Assembly: GCA_964016885.1 (NCBI GenBank)
Contig: OZ024762.1
Location: 19,406,001-19,470,000, forward strand
Source of the DNA: Eledone cirrhosa
Taxonomy: Eukaryota
Direction of reading: 5' to 3'
Length of the DNA stretch: 64,000 nt
In this document: piece after piece, positions 23,847 to 62,164 of the stretch
Position numbering within the stretch: position 1 is the first letter of the stretch
How the letters are laid out: every line of letters starts with the position of its first letter
Made by a program: the position numbers and the translations under genes
The notes under the pieces: generated by a model
What the model saw: only the letters and a program-made list of their open reading frames with translations
What the model was told of the DNA's origin: nothing
The model's database searches: none

Positions 23847-23885
23847 TGAACAAGTACTTTCATGCTTTCGCAATCTTCAGGGTCA
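23847..23885 (-). ncRNA. Minimal type I hammerhead (family C)
   Basis: Reverse complement tgacc-CTGAAGA-ttgcgaaagcat-GAAA-gtac-TT-gttca; one stem I mismatch. Confidence 0.7.
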
Positions 23886-24316: not shown

Positions 24317-24355
24317 TGAACCTGAAGATTGCGAAAGCATGAAAGTACTTGTTCA
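24317..24355 (+). ncRNA. Minimal type I hammerhead (family C)
   Basis: tgaac-CTGAAGA-t-tgc-gaaa-gca-t-GAAA-gtac-TT-gttca: 5-bp stem I, GNRA-capped stem II, palindromic stem III, CUU site. Confidence 0.82.
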
Positions 24356-34133: not shown

Positions 34134-35156
34134 AGGAATTAAACCCGTGAACTTATGATTGTGAGTTCAATACTCTAACAACTAGGCCACAAACTTTCAC
34201 AAACTATTCTTTAGTTTAAGAACAACTCTTGGGTCCCAAATAATAGGAGGGTTGGTTGGAATAAGCTGCGATGTTGGAGTAAGTGGCGCAGTTGGAAAAT
34301 TGGTAATGTTTCTAGGTTGTCTCTGTTGATTTCTTTTGAAAAACCAGAATTAGTTGTTTTGTTTACATAGTGAGACCCCCAACCCATCTTATTTATCTTA
34401 TAACATATGGGATTTCTCGTAATGTACTTTTTTGTTGTATCAAAGTTGTTGCCATTGTATGTAAGTGTGTGTGTCTGTGTATATATATATATATATGATG
34501 ATATCTAAAGAATGAAACAGTTCTAGTCCTGTAGAATCTCATCTATATTAAAACTATTTGGATTGATAATGTTTTTTGAAAAAACTAATTAACCCGCGTG
34601 AATATTATTTTTTCTTTTCTCGTGTATTGGTTGTCTCCCCTTCCTGCTTCGTGACGCTATAATACTTCCTCAGTCAAAAACTGCTGGAATTTCAAATTTG
34701 GCGGTCATTTGATGCGTGAGGGAGCAGCTTAGCAGACACGATTTTTAACTGCGGTAAGAATTTTTTCTTATATCAAAGTTTAATGGGCTTCCACTGATGA
34801 TTTATAAGTGCCCACCTAAATATATTCTTACATGAATATATGTTAGGCTTCTACATAAACTGGAAACATTCTCCTAATTTGTAGAAAACTTATAATGAAA
34901 CAATTGTTTGGAAAGAGAGATATATTTTAACTTTAATTATATCTCATAAAATAATACAACTGGCTTTCCACATAATACATATAGTTAGCACCCAAACACT
35001 TAAATTGGATTAATACTAACATATAACCTAATGTTTGTTGAGTGAGATGGTTGCCAGTCAGAGTTTAGCTTTAAGCTATCTCTGTTATTGTATTAAATAT
35101 ATATATATATATATAGTTTTAATATAGATGAGATTCTATAGGACTAGAACTGTTTC

Positions 35157-35203
35157 ATTCCTGATGATTTCTAAAGAATGAAATAGTTCTAGTCCTGTAG
35201 AAT
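35157..35203 (+). ncRNA. Type I hammerhead (family A) within a fold-back (35116-35221)
   Basis: attc-CTGATGA-t-ttc-taaa-gaa-t-GAAA-tag-ttctagtc-ctg-TA-gaat. Truncated or degenerate relatives at 34495-34554 and 55545-55650. Confidence 0.75.
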
Positions 35204-35290
35204 CTCATCTATATTAAAACTTTTATACTCTGCTATGTATTGAGTACCTTACTTACTGTGGTTACCTCTGATTCAATCCGGAATAACTTA

Positions 35291-35331
<41 letters not shown>

Positions 35332-35372
35332 ACGATATTAACAAATGGAAACTATATTTATAAAACCATATT

Positions 35373-35437
35373 TATTTCATTATACATATTTCAAGGACAC
35401 CAAGTTAAATTATGGTGTGCTTTCATCAGATAAAATA
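35373..35437 (-). ncRNA. Minimal type I hammerhead (family E)
   Basis: Reverse complement tattttat-CTGATGA-aagcacaccataatttaacttggtgtcctt-GAAA-tatgta-TA-atgaaata. Confidence 0.8.
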
Positions 35438-35631
35438 TAATATAGATCAGTTTTATAAATAAATATTGACATACCCTTAAAGAATGCAACCATTACTGTT
35501 GGAAGCTCTATGTATATGTATATATACGTGTGTGTATATATATGTGTGTGTATATAAATATATCTGTGTGTATATAAATGGAATAGAGTGAAACGAAATT
35601 TCATTTCTCACTCTTAGTACGGCACTTACTT

Positions 35632-46596: not shown

Positions 46597-48300
46597 TCAT
46601 CATCATCATCATCATCAACGTTTAACGTCCGTGTTCCACGCTTGCATGGGTTTGGACGGGGGTTTTCCCACTTGAGGCAAGAGTGATTATCTTGCTCGCA
46701 TAGGACTGTCTGGCGGGTTTTCTACAGCTGGATGCCCTTCCTAACACCAACCACATTTACAGTGTGGGGCTGGGAGGTTTTTACCGTGTTGCCTACACGG
46801 CCACATTACAGCGTGGACTGTCTGGCGGGTTTTCTACAGCTGGATGCCCTTCCTAACACCAACCACATTTACAGTGTGGGGCTGGGAGGTTTTTACCGTG
46901 TTGCCTACACGGCCACATTACAGCATGAACTGTGTGTTTTTTTGTCGTGACACCTACATGATCTCATTTGTTTCGGCCTGGATGTTGTGGCACCAACATA
47001 ACTTTACATTGAAAGGGGCGGTGTGGATGGGGTGGGGGTGGTGGGACGGGGGTGTATTTTGTTAGAGATGCCTACTGACTGTAGTAGGTTTTACTTTGTA
47101 TTTAGGTAAGGCGGGTCTTCTCTATTACTGAGTACCGCCAAAGGTCTCGGTCCAGTGACATTGTCTTGGTGAGGTGTAAGTGTGTGAGGTCGGAATTTAT
47201 CAGCTCGTCCCAGGTCTTTCTGGGTCTGCCTATTCCGTGGCTACCGTCTATCTTTATTGCCCTGCACTTTGTTATACAGCTATCGTCTTTCATGCGCATC
47301 ACGTGACCATACCAACGTAGCCTTCTCTCGAGTAAACAACATCTGATCCCTCTTATTTCTAATTTTTTCCTTAGTTCGTTTATGCTTTGCCGTTCACGTA
47401 TATTACTATTACACATCCAGCGGAGCATGCAAGCTTCGTTTCTCTCTAGTCTGCGTATATCCTCTGCACACAATGCCCAGGTCTCACTGCCATGCAACAT
47501 TGCTGTTCGTATGCAGGCATCATACAACCTGCCTTTCATTTTTAGGGAGAACCCTTTAGCGGCTAATAGTGGTATAAGCTCTCTGAACTTTTTCCATCCA
47601 GTTCTGACTCTAGCTACTGTACTTTCAGAGCACCCTCTCCCACTGCTGATTTTGTCACCCAGGTAACTGAAGCTGTCCACTATTTCTATAGAACCCTCTG
47701 CGCAGTTGAAAGAGCTAGTATTTTGTGGGCACTTGCTACTTATTGCACCAGAGCACCGGCCACATGTAAAATCTATGTTCTTAGTTAGCTTACCTGTGAT
47801 CCCACTACATCTTTTATGCACCCATACTTTGCATTTGGGACACAAAATGGAGTTTCTACCTACGCCTTTCCTACACACTGAGCATGGCCACTTCCCGGAA
47901 GGGACCGCCGCCTTATTTTCTTTCTTACAAACTAGAACTTTAGTCTTAGCCAGGTTAATTTTAAGGCCTTTTGATTCTAGGCCGTGCTTCCATGTTTGGA
48001 ATTTCTTCTCTAGCTCGGCCATTGATTCAGCTATGAGTGTTAGGTCATCTGCGTATAGGAGTTCCCATGGGCAACCGGTCTTGAACTCCTCTATTATAGC
48101 CTGAAGGGCAATAATAAATAGTAGGGGGCTGAGAACAGAGCCCTGATGGACGCCAACTTTTACGCTAAACTCTTCACTATATTTGTTGTTAATTCTAACC
48201 TTGCTGACTGTTTCTTTATACATGGCTTGTATAGCTCTCACAAGCCATTCGTCAACACCTAGTTTTCTAAGAGCCCACCAGATAATGGAACGGGGGACTC

Positions 48301-48304
<4 letters not shown>
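46597..48304 (-). mobile_element. 5'-truncated RTE-clade LINE
   Basis: RT ORF followed by a 3' UTR of about 500 bp, containing a 112-bp duplication (46704-46925) and ending gacgttaaacgtt(gat)n. The 5' break abuts (TA)n. Confidence 0.92.
47102..48304 (-). CDS. RTE non-LTR reverse transcriptase, C-terminal about 400 aa, uninterrupted
   Basis: DRVPRSIIWWALRKLGV, GVHQGSVLSPLLF, LLYADDL, YLG, RLRWYGHVMR and GRPRKTW motifs; no stop codon or frameshift; no start (truncated). Confidence 0.92.
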
Positions 48305-48346
<42 letters not shown>

Positions 48347-48645
48347 ATCACCATCATCATCATTTTACGTCCGCTTTTCCCTGCTTGCAAGGGTGGGATG
48401 GGAACTGATTCTGGCTTGATTTCTACAGCTGGATGCCCTTCCTAACACCAACCTCATTTACAGTGAGTGCTGGGTGCTTTTTTGCATTGGCACCTCCACG
48501 ACCACTTTGCAGTGGAATGATAGGGACCCCAGTCCTTATCATCTCATTTCTACAGCTGAGTAAACTGGAGCATTGTGAAATAAAGTGTCTTGCTCAAGGA
48601 AGCAACACATCACCCGGTCTGAGAATTGAACTCACAACCTTTCGA
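48347..48645 (-). mobile_element. SINE family 1, head truncated
   Basis: Near-identical to 4251-4560. Confidence 0.85.
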
Positions 48646-53159: not shown

Positions 53160-53197
53160 TTGCGAGGTTTTTTATATGAAATCGTGTGTTGAAACAA

Positions 53198-53332
53198 ATA
53201 TTGTTATACTTGGGGAGGGTCATATTTGTGTAATATTGCCAGAAAAGCGAAAACCAACCAAACAGTGTGTGTGTTCTGTTATTAATTCTGGCAATATTAC
53301 ACAAATATGACCCTCCCCAAGTATAACAATAT
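53198..53332. repeat. Perfect inverted repeat (about 47-bp arms)
   Basis: atattgttatacttggggagggtcatatttgtgtaatattgccagaa and its reverse complement, about 40 bp apart. Confidence 0.85.
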
Positions 53333-53337
53333 ATATA

Positions 53338-53621
53338 TCATCATTTCATCATCATTTCATTTTACATCCGCTTTCTCCCTGCTTGCAAGGGTGGGACGGG
53401 AACTGATTCTGGCTTGATTTCTACAGCTGGATGCCCTTCCTAACACCAACCTCATTTACAGTGAGTGCTGGGTGCTTTTTTGCCGTGGCACCTCCACGAC
53501 CACTTTGCAGTGGAATGATAGGGACCGCAGTCCCTATCATCTCATTTCTACAGCTGAGTAAACTGGAGCAATGTGAAATAAAGTGTCTTGCTCAAGGAAA
53601 CAACACATCACCCGGTCTGAG
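53338..53621 (-). mobile_element. SINE family 1, head missing
   Basis: Near-identical to the other copies. Confidence 0.85.
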
Positions 53622-53889: not shown

Positions 53890-54112
53890 TAAATAGGAAA
53901 AGAGTCAGGACCCCAACGGCAGAGCTCCGGCCATTTCGACAGCTAGATCCAAACTCTACTACCCTAAGTATTGAGTACTCTGGTGTGTTATGGTCCACCT
54001 GGTATCTTACCACACTTTCTTTGTTTTTTATATATATATAATGAAGGAGGTGTGGTAAGGAACCAGATGGACCATAACGCACCAGAGTACTCAATACTTA
54101 GGGTAGTAGAGT
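53890..54112. mobile_element. Rearranged fold-back of family H (half-hammerhead element)
   Basis: Inverted arms 53953-54021/54044-54112; homologous to 51310-51445 and 57765-57970. Confidence 0.65.
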
Positions 54113-54566: not shown

Positions 54567-56030
54567 GAGTAAGTATCAAAAGGCTTAAGGTTATTGCAAT
54601 GAAATTTCACTATTGCTGCGTCTAATCAATTTACTTATATTGTGCAGCGATAAATGAGTGTCTCGTTAATTTGGCAGCTGTAATTAGTTGTAAGCGAAAG
54701 ATCACATTCATTTCTATTAAGCTGTCCCTTCATTTGCCACCTGTCCCTTTCTCGCATTTCATAAATTATATTTAATAATTATACTAGAATCACTCTCTTT
54801 CACTCATATGTGTGTGTATATATATATATATATATATGTATATATGTTTGTTGGTATAAATATGTATATATGTATGTATATATGTATATATATATATATA
54901 TGTATGTTTGTTGGTATAAAAATATTTATATATATATATGTTTGTTGGTATAAATATGTGTATATGTATATATATATATGGATGCATATGTATATATATA
55001 TGGATGTATATATGTATATATATATATATATGTATATGTATGTAGATGTATATATGTATATGTATGTAGATGTATATGTATATATATATGTATATATGTA
55101 TATATATATATGTATGTATATGTATGTATGTATATATGTATATATATATGTATGTATATATGTATATATATATGTATGTATATATGTATATATATGTATA
55201 TATATATGTATATATATGTATATATATATGTATATATATGTATATATATATGTATGTATATATATATATATATGTATATGTATATGTATGTATATATATA
55301 TGTATGTATGTATATATATATATATATATTACTATTATTATTTCTCACTCATATTTCTATTTAATTTAGATGTCAGATATAATTTTAAAGTAGGTTTTAG
55401 GTTTCACTGATGATGATGATGGCGATGGTGATAATGGCGGTGATAGTGATTATGTTAGTGTTGATGGTGATGATTGTGCCGATGGTGTGGTTGATGAAGA
55501 TTAGACGGTCATATATTTGGGCCAATAAAGACATTGAGTTCTCTATAGATATATTAGAACTAGGACTGTTTCATCCAAAAGAAATTGTCAGGAAATACCT
55601 TTTTGAATGAAACAGTTCTAGTCCAGTAGAAGCCATTTCTATATTAAATATGATATTTACACTCTACTAATGTATTGAGTACCTTACTGTGGTTACTCCC
55701 AATTGAACCCGTGGTGCACACACACACACACACACACACTACCACACCACACCACACCACACCACACCACACCACACCACACCACACCACACCACACCAC
55801 ACCACACCACCTCCACACCACACCACACCACACACCTCCACACCACACCACACCACACCACACCCCCACCCCCCACACCTCCACACACGCCACCACCGCT
55901 TTATATATATATATATATTTATAGTGGTAGAACACTGGAAGGTAGTAGTAGAGCACTTTGTAGTGGTAGAGCACTCAGTCCATGGGACGAGTTAGGTAGA
56001 AGTGGTTACACAACAGTTAGTTCACCATAC

Positions 56031-56068
56031 CGAGAAGAATTGTTTCACCTTAGTGGATCCTCAGCTCG
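56031..56068 (-). ncRNA. Minimal type I hammerhead (family I)
   Basis: Reverse complement cgag-CTGAGGA-tccactaaggt-GAAA-caattc-TT-ctcg; stem III mismatch. Confidence 0.65.
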
Positions 56069-56129
56069 CAATGGACATGGTTATATGGAACAGGAAGGAC
56101 AACCCTGTTCCGTATAACCATGTCCATTA

Positions 56130-56167
56130 CGAGCTGAAGATCCGCTAAGGTGAAACAATTGTTCTTG
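56130..56167 (+). ncRNA. Minimal type I hammerhead (family I)
   Basis: cgag-CTGAAGA-tccgctaaggt-GAAA-caattg-TT-cttg; palindromic stem III, GUU site. Confidence 0.75.
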
Positions 56168-56275
56168 GTATGGTGAACTAACTGTTGTGTAACCACTTAT
56201 ATATAGATATATGTCCCAAGGCTCTGATACCATCAACACTATAAACACAGAGCTGGCATATCTAAGAACTGTCTA

Positions 56276-56884: not shown

Positions 56885-57426
56885 TAAATATACACACACA
56901 CACACATATATATATATATACATACACAGACACACACATATATTCCATAACATATATAAGTGACTATAGCGTCAAAATGGGAAAATAGTTAACAAAATAT
57001 ATATAGGGATTTTAGTTATCAAATTTTAATTGGCGAAATATAAAATTAAGTGATATATGCAGTGTTGACAAGTAAGGAAAAACTTACGCAGCTGGACTGG
57101 ATAATTGTTGTAAATTGTTCGAGGTATAAGAGTTGATTATTGATTAAAATTTGATTCTACGAAAATAATGAGTTTTATGAAAGATTTGCTTTAACACTTC
57201 TGATGCCAAATTACATGGAAGTTCCCTTATCTTTTTGTGTGATGGGCTGAGAATCACTAGTTTGTGGGTTCAAGTCTTGCCGAGGGAGAGCAAGTGAGAG
57301 AGAGAGACAGAGACAGAGAGAGAAAGAAAAATGAAGTGAAATGATAGTATCATCTCTCTCTCTCTCTCGAGAGAGAGAGGTTATATTTAATTTATTGGGA
57401 TTTATTTATAAAACTAACATATATTA

Positions 57427-57492
57427 TATTTTATCTGATGAAAGCGCACCATAGTTTGCCTTGGTGGCCCTTGAAATATGTATAATGAAATA
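57427..57492 (+). ncRNA. Minimal type I hammerhead (family E)
   Basis: tattttat-CTGATGA-aagcgcaccatagtttgccttggtggccctt-GAAA-tatgta-TA-atgaaata. Confidence 0.8.
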
Positions 57493-57530
57493 AATATGGT
57501 TTTATAAATATAGTTTCCATTTGTTAATAT

Positions 57531-57579
<49 letters not shown>

Positions 57580-58026
57580 ACTAGAAATAGATTGACACAT
57601 ATATATATAAAATAAACACATGAAACACACAATCTATTTCTAGTTGATATAAAATGCTCGGAACTATTCTTTGAGCTTATTCTGCAGTGAATATGGCGCA
57701 TGTCTCTCAGACATGACAACCTTACCTTAATTTAATTTTGGATATATATATATATATATATATAACGAAGGAAATGTGGTAAGGAACCAGGTGGACCATA
57801 ACGCACCAAAGTTCTCAATACTTAGGGTAGTAGAGTGGGTAATAGGAACGAGTAGGACCCCGACGGCTGAGCTCAAGCCGTTTCAACGGCTAATTCTGGA
57901 CTAAAATATTTTAGTCCAGAATTAGCCGTCGAAACAGCTTGAGCTCAGCCGTCGGGGTCCTACTCGTTCCTATATATATATATATAGTATAAGAATAAGG
58001 TAATAAAGAATCAGTGTTGCATCATA

Positions 58027-58118
58027 ACATATTACATATGTTTCACTGTCGATCAGCTCGAAGGACGATCTATTATTGATCGAACCTGACTCTTGAATCG
58101 AAAAACCCTCAGATATGC
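58027..58118 (-). ncRNA. Long-stem-II hammerhead (family D), core variant CTGAGGG
   Basis: Homologous to 26177-26268 but with A9 changed to G. Confidence 0.55.
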
Positions 58119-58173
58119 GTCAGTATATAAGCTCACCTCTGATGTATCATCAGAGGCGAGCTTACATAGAGAA

Positions 58174-58265
58174 GCATATCTGAGGGTTTTTCGATTCCAG
58201 CGCCAGGTTTGATCAATAATAGATCGTCCTTCGAGCTGATCGACAGTGAAACATATGTAATATGT
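58174..58265 (+). ncRNA. Long-stem-II hammerhead (family D), core variant CTGAGGG
   Basis: gcatat-CTGAGGG-...-GAAA-catatg-TA-atatgt. Confidence 0.55.
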
Positions 58266-59022
58266 TATGATGCAACACTGATTCTTTGTTACCTTATTCT
58301 TATACTATATATATATATATATATATATAGGAACGAGCAGGCCCCCGACGGCTGAGCTCAAGCCGTTTCGACGGCTAATTCTGGACTAAAATATTTTAGT
58401 CCAGAATTAGCTGTCGAAATGGCTTGAGCTCAGCCGTCGGGGTCCTACTCGTTCCTATTACCCACTCTACTACCCTAAGTATTGAGAACTTTGGTGCGTT
58501 ATGGTCCACCTGGTTCCTTACCACATTTCCTTCGTTATATATATATATATATATATCCAAAATTAAATTAAGGTAAGGTTGTCATGTCTGAGAGACATGC
58601 GCCATATTTATATAAATATGAGACTAAACGTGCTGCGTAGTTGCAAATGGGTTACATATGAATAAAGTTAGTCCTTCATCAGTGATCATTGGTATTTCAT
58701 CGCTTTAAAGACCATATACCTCCGGTTGGTGCGAGCAACGGCTAAAAAAAGTCGTTGGGACATGTAAATAAAGGGGACACGAGAGTGTAAACAAACAAAG
58801 ATGGTGAAGCAACGAAAAGTGAGGAAGAAAGAGTTAAGTCCCAAATTTCCATGAATATAAGTTCGGTGAAATCGTGAATGAGAGAGAGAATAAAGACCAT
58901 CAAACCTGGTTGGAATGTGAGCAAGTACAGGTCTAACGGGAGGAAGAAGGAATCTAGTCTGTGAATTCGGTGAACATAAGTTCTGTGAAATCGTAGATGA
59001 GAGAGAGAGAGAAAATGCGAAC

Positions 59023-59070
<48 letters not shown>

Positions 59071-59613
59071 AAATTAATTCGAAAATTGAGATAGACATGA
59101 TAACTTGTATGATAAAATCATCAATAATATTTATACATGCACAATTTTTAATCTATATAGATACTTATATACTTACAACCTGTTGTAATGTAATAAGATA
59201 AAATGTACTTACAACCATAATTCTTCATATAATCTAATTGATTATATATACAATATTATAACTCATAATATAGCTAAACAATTTTTTTAAAATTCTAGAA
59301 TCATATTCCACCATTCCTACAAAATGTTAATTCTTTTTAAATTAACGTAAATACAAGCTCTTCTTTCTTTCTCTTTCTTCTTCCTACACATACATATATC
59401 CTAATAATTATTTAAATCTGCCTAGCATCTACAAATAACGTTTTTTTTTTTTTCAGTCCTATACCTCAACCTCATTTGCATACTCATCTTAATAATTTGA
59501 AATATTTGACTTTTATTTTCTTCTCTTTCCCGTCTTTCCTTTACTATCCAGGAAAAACTTGAACCATTAAGATCTCCTTCCTGGTTATGTCAATATTTAT
59601 GAAACAAACTTTG

Positions 59614-59674
59614 TATTTTATCTGATGAGAGCATACCAAAATTTTGGTACCCTTGAAATGTATATAATAGAATA
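59614..59674 (+). ncRNA. Minimal type I hammerhead (family E)
   Basis: tattttat-CTGATGA-gagcataccaaaattttggtaccctt-GAAA-tgtata-TA-atagaata. Confidence 0.78.
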
Positions 59675-59797
59675 AATATGGTTTTATAAATATAGTTTCC
59701 ATTTATTTAATATCATTGAATATTATACTCGAGTGCTTCCAATTAGTTATAAACATTTATATTTGTTGAATTACCAACAAATTAAATATCCCTTTTG

Positions 59798-59847
<50 letters not shown>

Positions 59848-59878
59848 CAAATGGAAACTATATTTATAAAACCATATT

Positions 59879-59944
59879 TATTTCATTATACATATTTCGG
59901 GGATACCATATTAAAAATATGGCATGCCTTCTTCAGATAAAATA
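59879..59944 (-). ncRNA. Minimal type I hammerhead (family E), left arm of palindrome 59846-60159
   Basis: Exact reverse complement of 60061-60126. Confidence 0.72.
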
Positions 59945-60060
59945 CAATATATAAGCAGTTTTATAAATAATTTTGACGTACCATAAATATTGATCAACAC
60001 ATGAAAGTTGATCAATATTTATGGTACATCAAAATTATTTATAAAACTGCTTATATATTG

Positions 60061-60126
60061 TATTTTATCTGAAGAAGGCATGCCATATTTTTAATATGGT
60101 ATCCCCGAAATATGTATAATGAAATA
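60061..60126 (+). ncRNA. Minimal type I hammerhead (family E), right arm of palindrome 59846-60159
   Basis: tattttat-CTGAAGA-aggcatgccatatttttaatatggtatcccc-GAAA-tatgta-TA-atgaaata. Confidence 0.72.
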
Positions 60127-60166
60127 AATATGGTTTTATAAATATAGTTTCCATTTGTTTAATATC

Positions 60167-60231
<65 letters not shown>

Positions 60232-60269
60232 ATATTAACAAATGGAAACTATATTTATAAAAGCATATT

Positions 60270-60335
60270 TATTTTATTATACATATTTCAAGGGCCACCA
60301 AGTCAAATTATGGTGCGCTTTCATCAGATAAAATA
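60270..60335 (-). ncRNA. Minimal type I hammerhead (family E), left arm of fold-back 60237-60558
   Basis: Reverse complement tattttat-CTGATGA-aagcgcaccataatttgacttggtggccctt-GAAA-tatgta-TA-ataaaata; perfect 8-bp stem I. Confidence 0.82.
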
Positions 60336-60459
60336 CAATACAGATTAGTTTTATAAATAAATATTGACATACCCTGAAAAAAAGACAACCTTAACGGTTG
60401 GAGCTTCCTGGATAGTCAATATTTATGTCAATATTTATTTATAAAACTAATCTGTATTG

Positions 60460-60525
60460 TATTTTATCTGATTAAAGCGCACCATAATTTACCTTGGTGG
60501 CCCTTGAAATATGTATAATAAAATA
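60460..60525 (+). ncRNA. Hammerhead (family E) with core mutation CTGATTA, probably inactive
   Basis: Mirror of 60270-60335 with G8 changed to T. Confidence 0.55.
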
Positions 60526-60556
60526 AATATGGTTTTATAAATATAGTTTCCATTTG

Positions 60557-60713
60557 TTGTGGTTGGTGTTAGGAAGGGCATCCAGCCATTGAAAACCCGC
60601 CAGACAGTCCTATGCGAGCAAGACAACCACTCTTGCCTCAAGTGGGAAAACTCCCGTCCAAACCCATGCAAGCGTGGAATATGGATGTTAAACGATGATG
60701 ATGATGATGATGA
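60557..60713 (+). mobile_element. RTE LINE 3' tail fragment
   Basis: Reverse complement match to 46597-46755; ends in (gat)n. Confidence 0.85.
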
Positions 60714-60848
60714 TTGTATATTTACTCCAATAACTTGTTGAGTGCTTTATATCAGTTAAAAAAATATTTTTAAGCTTGTTGTATCCCAACAAATTCAATA
60801 TAACCTTTGCATATATATATATATATAATTTAATTATGTTCATACCCG

Positions 60849-61040
60849 GAACAAAAGCACTTCCTAAGGCTTCAAGGCCCAAATTTGACTATATCTCCAA
60901 AATACAAGCGGCATCGATTTTTGTGACATTTCTTCAGGCACTTATACAAGTTGAGAAGAAAAGTCATTATTTTGATGCCTCTTGTGTTCTGGAGATATAG
61001 TCAAATTTGAGCCTGGAATGTTGAGTAGCGCCTTTGTTCC
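60849..61040. repeat. Imperfect palindrome, MITE-like
   Basis: caaatttgactatatctcca / tggagatatagtcaaatttg core arms, with ggaacaaa / tttgttcc outer ends. Confidence 0.6.
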
Positions 61041-62164
61041 TTCTATGAATATAAATACATAATATAACAATTCTGTTCTCTTCCCGAATGAACACTGTTT
61101 TCTGTTTCCTTTTCACACCTACAGATATTGTTACATACATACATACACACACAAACACACACACATACACACACACACACTCACACACATACATACACAC
61201 ACAGAGAAAGAGAGTAAAAGAAAAACAAAAAAGGGAGAGCAAGGAAAGCCAGAAAGAGACAGGTAAATAGATCAATACATACACATATATATATATGGAG
61301 AGAGAGAGAGAGTGAGAGATTGAGTGGGAGAGATAGAGATAGAGAGAGTGAGAGAGCAACAAAAACATCTGCATTCTTTGGTTAAGTGAAATGGAAGTTG
61401 TCAACACAGCTTTAACATTACATTTTCTACATTTGGCAGCTGAATTGATGTGTGGCTGTCTACAGCTCTTATATAACCATACACACTCTCACATATATAA
61501 TATACACACATACACTACAGAAGCTCTTAAGTACTCCAAGCTATATAGCAATGGAATTTCAATATGTTGGAATTGTGTATGGCTTTTTTTGAAAGGTGTA
61601 AGTAATTTGTCTGGACACTTCACTAAAAACATTGCTTGATGGTTCTTGATGAAATTTTAATATCTTGGTTGGTGCTTCCATCAAGAATGGTTTATTTCTC
61701 CCTCTTTGAATATGGCGTAGTGTTTTTCTTCTTATTTTGTTCTTTTTTTTTAAAAGAACATGCTTTTTATTGTGTCTGCACATATAGGTTTATGTGTGTG
61801 TGTGTATATATTTGTGCATGTATATATCTCTATATCTATGTGGGTGTGTTTATATATGTGTGTGTGTGTTTGTGTTAATTTTATTTGTATGGCATATATA
61901 TATATATGTGTGTATATACGTATATATGTGTATATATATATATATATATATGTGTATATATGTGTGTGTATATATGTATGTGTATGTGTGTATATATATG
62001 TGTGTATATATGTGTATGTGTGTGTGTATGTGTATGTGTGTGTATATATATATGTGTGTATATATATATATATATGTGTGTATATATATATGTGTATATA
62101 TATATATATGTGTGTGTATATATATATGTGTATATGTGTGTGTATATATGTGTATGTGTGTATA

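Follow-up and report, generated by a model that had tools for sequence, protein, structure and literature searches.

What are the hammerhead-like motifs that cluster, partly as fold-backs between (TA)n tracts, in this 64-kb stretch of the Eledone cirrhosa genome (the window, meaning the whole stretch analyzed here)? An earlier note had grouped them under its own label, family E, and had proposed that the fold-backs are an amplifying non-autonomous element that inserts into (TA)n and is selected for its RNA structure. Our analysis points to another unit of amplification: the family E copies are quite probably the 5'-truncated 3' ends of an endonuclease-positive Penelope-like retroelement (PLE).

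Seven copies in the window were common to blastn, a hammerhead descriptor and a covariance model, the last of which was trained on the same seven copies (Table 1). The cluster of five motifs in 1 kb was located at 59614–60525, and the additional copies described at 35373 and 57427 were recovered. A strict version of the descriptor matched the window ten times, with six of these matches to family E, and matched none of 12 dinucleotide shuffles made in 1-kb blocks. Further covariance-model matches scoring below 35 bits were not counted, being antisense matches, members of another hammerhead family or weak matches. Rfam returned no hammerhead at E ≤ 10 among five matches to the 59622 copy, and none among the 150 listed of 260 matches across the window; its microRNA matches in the window were microsatellites and hairpins.

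Table 1 Family E copies and neighboring features in the window. Core positions are the starts of C3 and were common to blastn, the descriptor and the covariance model.
Feature	Positions	Strand	Remarks
Subtype a2 copy	35330–35505	-	Hammerhead 35373–35437, core 35429; single arm, short 3' end, then (CA)4(TA)15
Subtype a1 copy	57378–57540	+	Hammerhead 57427–57492, core 57435
AT-rich stretch	59068–59539		From (TA)21 to subtype b unit; possible part of the element
Whole subtype b unit	59540–59800	+	5' part, hammerhead, conserved 3' end, ~90-nt tail reaching (TA)22
Hammerhead, subtype b	59614–59674	+	Core 59622, predicted cut after 59666
(TA)22	59800–59843		Separates subtype b unit from fold-back 1
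Fold-back 1	59841–60168		Two near-identical subtype c arms, head to head, 8-nt spacer
Hammerhead, subtype c	59879–59944	-	Core 59936
Hammerhead, subtype c	60061–60126	+	Core 60069
(TA)30	60168–60227		Separates fold-back 1 from fold-back 2
Fold-back 2	60228–60812		Asymmetric; small duplication at junction
Hammerhead, subtype a1	60270–60335	-	Core 60327
Hammerhead, subtype a1	60460–60525	+	Core 60468; G8 to U, predicted inactive
LINE 3' end with (GAT)n tail	60560–60714	+	Later 155-nt insertion splitting family E tail
Family E 3' tail	60715–60812	+	Homologous to 59715–59800

Judged from their sequence, all seven motifs belong to the type I hammerheads and have a self-complementary stem III. Each combines a stem I of 8 bp with CUGANGA, a long stem II, GAA, a stem/loop III and the cut triplet AUA. 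All eight pairs of stem I form in all seven copies, 8–9 of the first 10 positions of stem II are paired, with an invariant C.C mismatch at the fourth, and stem III has 2 bp. Distal to stem I, an internal loop followed by a 13-bp helix is predicted, and the predicted cut site lies ~45 nt from the short end and ~135–145 nt from the tail end. The CUGANGA/GAAA core and NUH cut site are intact in six of the seven copies. The core had been called conserved, but it is not invariant: the 60468 copy, with U in place of G8, reads CUGAUUA, and N7 also varies. Because cleavage of a PLE hammerhead needs G8 (PMC11167929), the 60468 copy is predicted to be inactive. An AATAAA overlaps the 3' strand of stem I (60119–60168 and equivalents).

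The 8 nt of stem III are self-complementary in every copy, as in the dimer type of hammerhead, and the predicted 8-mer duplex is worth only -2.2 to -3.2 kcal/mol. As a monomer, the hammerhead fold lies 4.5–8 kcal/mol above the minimum-energy fold. Single-copy folding z-scores are weak (-1.97 to +0.41), so fold stability alone is no evidence for a family E structure. The 10.1–11.1 pair is A-U in four copies, G-U in one and A.C in two, with G-C absent in the favored register; for subtype c, a register with an extra A would give G10.1–C11.1, and its scored version was 2.6 kcal/mol worse.

The seven copies form five units and fall into four subtypes (a1, a2, b and c), with 76–100% identity over the covariance model, in whose alignment subtype c sits one column out of register. 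Four motifs lie in two adjacent fold-backs with the ribozymes directed outward in both, as had been described. Fold-back 1 is symmetric, both of its arms having the short 3' end and neither a tail. In fold-back 2, the left arm (~60228–60416) has the short 3' end and is ~45 nt longer at its 5' end, and the right arm starts at ~60424 and carries the 3' tail. This tail is split by a LINE piece with 93.5% identity to 46599–46753; beyond it, the alignment of 60715–60812 to 59715–59800 scored 98, compared with a mean of 44 and a maximum of 71 in 500 shuffles. The 5' part of the subtype b unit is homologous to the left arm of fold-back 2, and the distal part of its stem II is a 16-nt perfect palindrome. 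Upstream of it, the AT-rich stretch has no second copy in the window and no long open frame on the + strand; a T12-CAG run at 59440–59456 resembles a 3' splice site. The 57435 copy has, fused to its 5' junction, 24 nt of the tail end in inverted orientation (57378–57401).

Overall, an inverted partner is present in three of the five units (those at 35429 and 59622 have none), and these three differ in junction and arm length. The 3' end is short in five of the seven copies and extended by a tail of ~90–100 nt in two, and tail sequence stands at one end only in fold-back 2 and the 57435 unit. With 4 differences between its arms over the ~135 nt compared, fold-back 2 was judged not to be an artefact of assembly or amplification; fold-back 1, whose arms differ at 2 places, is less secure in this respect.

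All seven copies run into (TA)n: the short end stops 5–20 nt before the tract in five, and the other two meet it after the tail. The proposed link to (TA)n is borne out within the window, as an association: with ~10% of window positions inside or directly ahead of a (TA)5+ tract, the chance of finding all five units there is 1e-5, although 1e-3 is fairer given that three of the five lie in one cluster. Subtypes b, c and a1 follow one another with (TA)22 and (TA)30 between them, which suggests repeated insertion into one tract. The description of both fold-backs as flanked by (TA)n holds except on the right side of fold-back 2, where 60558 is followed by the 155-nt LINE 3' end and the ~100-nt tail, and (TA)8 comes only at 60812. 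The short end of several copies closes with GTATAT, merging with (TA)n, and could serve as priming microhomology.

This anatomy, together with the dimer-type hammerhead, supports the suggested link to PLEs. Insertions of endonuclease-positive PLEs are described as 5'-truncated, with a truncated copy in inverted orientation alongside, a tail that may be present at one end and a microsatellite as target (PMC8557442; PMC3846280). Family E insertions share the truncation, the inverted truncated neighbor, the one-end tail, the microsatellite target, a hammerhead near the 3' end and possibly, to judge from a few reads, partial tandems. They differ from those accounts, and thereby speak against a PLE origin, in a tail of ~90–100 nt rather than 30–40 nt, in the symmetric and tail-less fold-back 1 and in that no open reading frame, and no PLE protein, was seen. 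Among 248 frames scanned with Pfam, none had a GIY-YIG domain and the only reverse transcriptase was of LINE type, none being of PLE type; these came from 274 listed stop-to-stop frames of at least 45 aa, the other 26 lying within tandem arrays or antisense to that of the LINE. Such an absence is compatible with truncation, as truncated copies would lack the frame.

In the mechanism we propose, the PLE protein would nick TA repeats and copy its RNA from one of two start points, and the short and long 3' ends would reflect two reverse-transcription start sites ~90–100 nt apart. A purified PLE protein has been shown to cleave AT-rich DNA on both strands and to initiate reverse transcription at two internal sites, which define the tail (PMC11167929). 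Each fold-back may arise anew during insertion, either because both target strands are primed or because the cDNA primes itself. As for the ribozyme, it would act in dimeric form within a tandem precursor RNA of the source element, where compensatory changes would be selected. The fold-back copies in the window would be inert, as their two arms pair with each other: in a read-through transcript, arm pairing is predicted at -230 and -193 kcal/mol for the two fold-backs, and + strand folding assigned stems I and II a probability of 0.0 in both. With these copies modeled as locked in a hairpin, selection on structure has likely acted in source lineages rather than in the copies themselves. Inverted repeats also contain or adjoin other hammerhead families of the window, so fold-backs are not peculiar to family E. 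Opposite-strand hammerhead pairs 100–700 bp apart were attributed to truncated PLEs in 2014 (PMC4209133), and the O. vulgaris genome contains 6.83% Penelope-like elements in 190 families (PMC13282606 supplement).

Beyond the window, we aligned one arm (60232–60418) to 4 of 14 listed read or contig sets (X1, X12, X5 and X6). Matches were found in 4,868 of 17,142,217 contigs in X1 and 23,171 of 12,467,656 reads in X12, and in 43 of 8,254,286 and 5 of 6,943,267 contigs in X5 and X6, which are labeled as other organisms. Summed depth on the arm in X1 reached 2.5 million, compared with 9–25 for the single long contigs listed, which implies thousands of copies or more, depth being no copy number. 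Together, the X1 and X12 counts and depth agree with the proposal that family E is amplified. X12 is a reduced-representation library, and subtype c stem II occurs in 13,815 of its reads, which probably reflects a restriction site within that stem. Beyond the short end, 13,095 X12 reads continue with a consensus agreement of 0.82, fitting the window tail by eye. A 29-nt conserved family E pattern had no match in metagenome, viral and prokaryote genome contigs.

The reads also contain strand-switch joints at several positions and three short head-to-tail joints (6 reads, 6 reads and 1 contig) of a kind absent from the window. Joints were supported by 3–8 reads each, apart from a row of 86 reads with a single start, and library chimeras are possible among them. 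The variable joints, the differing junctions and arm lengths and a tail on some ends only all go against the idea that the fold-back is the unit that amplifies.

A rather unlikely alternative is that family E is itself a short element, discrete and non-coding, which has a promoter and a ribozyme of its own and is mobilized in trans by a (TA)n-targeting PLE protein. No open reading frame adjoins any of the seven copies, and the 59622 copy lies within a 730-nt stretch between (TA)n tracts with no long + strand frame. Depth on the arm drops steeply toward the 5' end in X1 and X12, as a discrete element would predict, but truncation, subtype divergence and the edge of the query also give such a drop. 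Upstream of the longest window copy, 28 X1 contigs carry on with a shared consensus agreement of 0.63, which counts against a discrete 5' end. While pLTR sequences alone can be mobilized in trans (PMC3846280) and putatively non-autonomous PLE families exist (PMC8557442), Hydra-clade PLEs likewise have long non-coding 3' ends, as read by eye. In its fullest form, as a free-standing SINE-like parasite of such a protein with thousands of copies or more in octopods and selection keeping its own RNA, this reading has a low probability in our view; the features kept would, if it is true, be the hammerhead, the long stem I, the invariant C.C mismatch and the ~100-nt tail.

It is very improbable that the fold-back itself is mobile, inserted into TA repeats as a complete copy in the manner of a MITE or a hairpin-RNA element. 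In favor of this, fold-back 1 has near-identical arms around an 8-nt spacer, and the sequence leading toward its center recurs in 3 X1 contigs and 1 X5 contig. Yet the three inverted units of the window have three junctions and three arm lengths, single-arm copies exist, and joints in reads fall at varied positions. MITEs have fixed size and structure, terminal inverted repeats and a target site duplication; family E has neither fixed size nor fixed structure, and any such duplication would be masked by (TA)n. The ribozyme is moreover predicted to be unfolded in the hairpin, which would leave its conservation unexplained. Dispersed monomers of a non-LTR retrozyme (tandem repeats with circular RNA) are an extremely improbable source, despite the dimer-type type I hammerhead, the low GC, three same-strand motifs spaced 447 and 399 nt apart and a report that retrozymes derive from PLE pLTRs (bioRxiv 10.64898/2026.07.22.740005), because the window has no head-to-tail unit of 150–450 bp with a hammerhead and the three motifs are three subtypes split by (TA)n and inverted arms.

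Whichever element produced the copies, their stem II sequences bear on selection for RNA structure. All three stem II variants quoted in the earlier note pair as described, the third with one G-U pair. With the invariant C.C mismatch set aside, pairing holds in 34 of the 36 stem II cells, and both sides changed in three pairs. By parsimony count, stem II underwent nine changes, all of them transitions, while unpaired columns contain 7 transitions and 12 transversions. When the same number of changes was scattered on a four-tip tree, the probability of matching the stem II result was 0.011 with transitions only and 0.001 with two-thirds transitions, for a stem II register picked to maximize pairing. 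In the model-fitted alignment, 3 pairs covary, a number reached in 92 of 500 shuffles, and the covariation score of 0.196 was reached in 6 of 500.

Variants in the reads were unevenly distributed: among the 40 of 66 variant rows listed, they fall on 8 of the 78 positions that are paired or in the core (on none of the 12 core positions) and on 15 of the 31 that are in loops, in bulges or free (Fisher p 3e-5). The unpaired 3' end is conserved in reads too, and the read alignment clips divergent subtypes within stem II. Template-switch repair of DNA quasi-palindromes is a mechanism able to yield paired changes, and could mimic compensation in stem II. We conclude that family E RNA structure is probably under constraint and that the evidence is modest, covariation being supported by only about four lineages; of the proposed selection on RNA structure, the compensatory changes stand at this strength. 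Covariation between PLE hammerhead families within one genome has already been published (PMC4209133).

Within the preferred reading as truncated PLE ends, we compared family E to known ribozymes and clades. As in the PLE hammerheads of PMC4209133, the core is CUGANGA/GAAA, helix II is long, stem/loop III is palindromic, a genome contains many families with compensatory changes, and opposite-strand pairs lie 100–700 bp apart. Unlike those, family E has a longer stem I (8 bp plus the predicted distal 13-bp helix), the invariant C.C mismatch and A-U, G-U or A.C at 10.1–11.1, where G10.1–C11.1 was called highly conserved (PMC4209133). In sum, family E appears on sequence grounds to insert as PLEs do, and most structural features compared agree, G10.1–C11.1 excepted. 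With non-LTR retrozymes (PMC7229834), it shares a type I hammerhead, low GC and high copy number, but those are head-to-tail tandems, whereas family E is inverted or single with variable 5' ends.

Among PLE clades, Hydra may be the closest, a lead that comes from (TA)n preference and hammerhead layout. Hydra-clade PLEs prefer (TA)n and have a hammerhead ~100–250 nt from the 3' end, a self-complementary stem III region of 8–10 nt and often no G10.1–C11.1 (PMC8557442). According to the same source, they occur in Octopus, including Hydra-1_Obim, from which the family E hammerhead differs; their proteins are marked by RWK and DKT motifs and no CCHH in the endonuclease, and other PLE clades also favor (TA)n. 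Six short family E motifs had no match in the PMC8557442 supplement, and a family E motif search of that of PMC13282606 gave none. Literature searches turned up no published description of family E; Repbase or Dfam may hold it.

The window contains further repeats of related form. At least five other type I hammerhead families occur, at 24322+, 35848+, 56281+, 26262- and 55-. Those at 24322, 35848 and 55 show the CUGANGAU...UGAAA layout common among Hydra-clade hammerheads, and near 23880 the inverted partner of 24322 has an altered junction between stem I and the core. A nested palindrome at 57690–58608 (919 nt, 94% by blastn) has at its core a hammerhead fold-back with CUGAGGG cores at 58112- and 58180+; moving outward come a (TA)n tract, a fold-back of a second family, another (TA)n tract and an identical flank of 56 nt, all of it repeated inverted. 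This palindrome could be a PLE-driven inverted duplication or a 3' transduction of flanking DNA. Fold-backs without a family E motif, most of them near (TA)n, lie at 53953–54112, 55997–56201, 35115–35221, 53187–53343 and 60822–61066, and the first of these scores as a plant microRNA precursor below the Rfam cut-off. At 46599–48364 (-) lies the 3' part of a LINE with a reverse transcriptase and a PHD finger; one segment of the 3' UTR is duplicated, and there is a (GAT)n tail. The 3' end of this LINE is found again at 60560–60714 and, as shorter pieces, elsewhere. The top identities of its reverse transcriptase among named relatives were 72% (a record labeled as a bacterial MAG) and 65% (Octopus bimaculoides).

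Taken as truncated PLE ends, family E would be an apparently undescribed high-copy family of a known kind, with a layout already published for PLEs and a tail longer than the published 30–40 nt. A new mechanism is not indicated unless the family E source proves to be non-coding; if the SINE-like reading is true, family E would be a minimal natural substrate for studying PLE inverted insertions and the purpose of the ribozyme. For annotation, these (TA)n-flanked hairpins are at risk of being filed wrongly under MITEs or microRNA precursors; where tested, the family E hammerhead escaped Rfam. Family E also provides natural variants in large number, with which to test what features PLE hammerheads retain.
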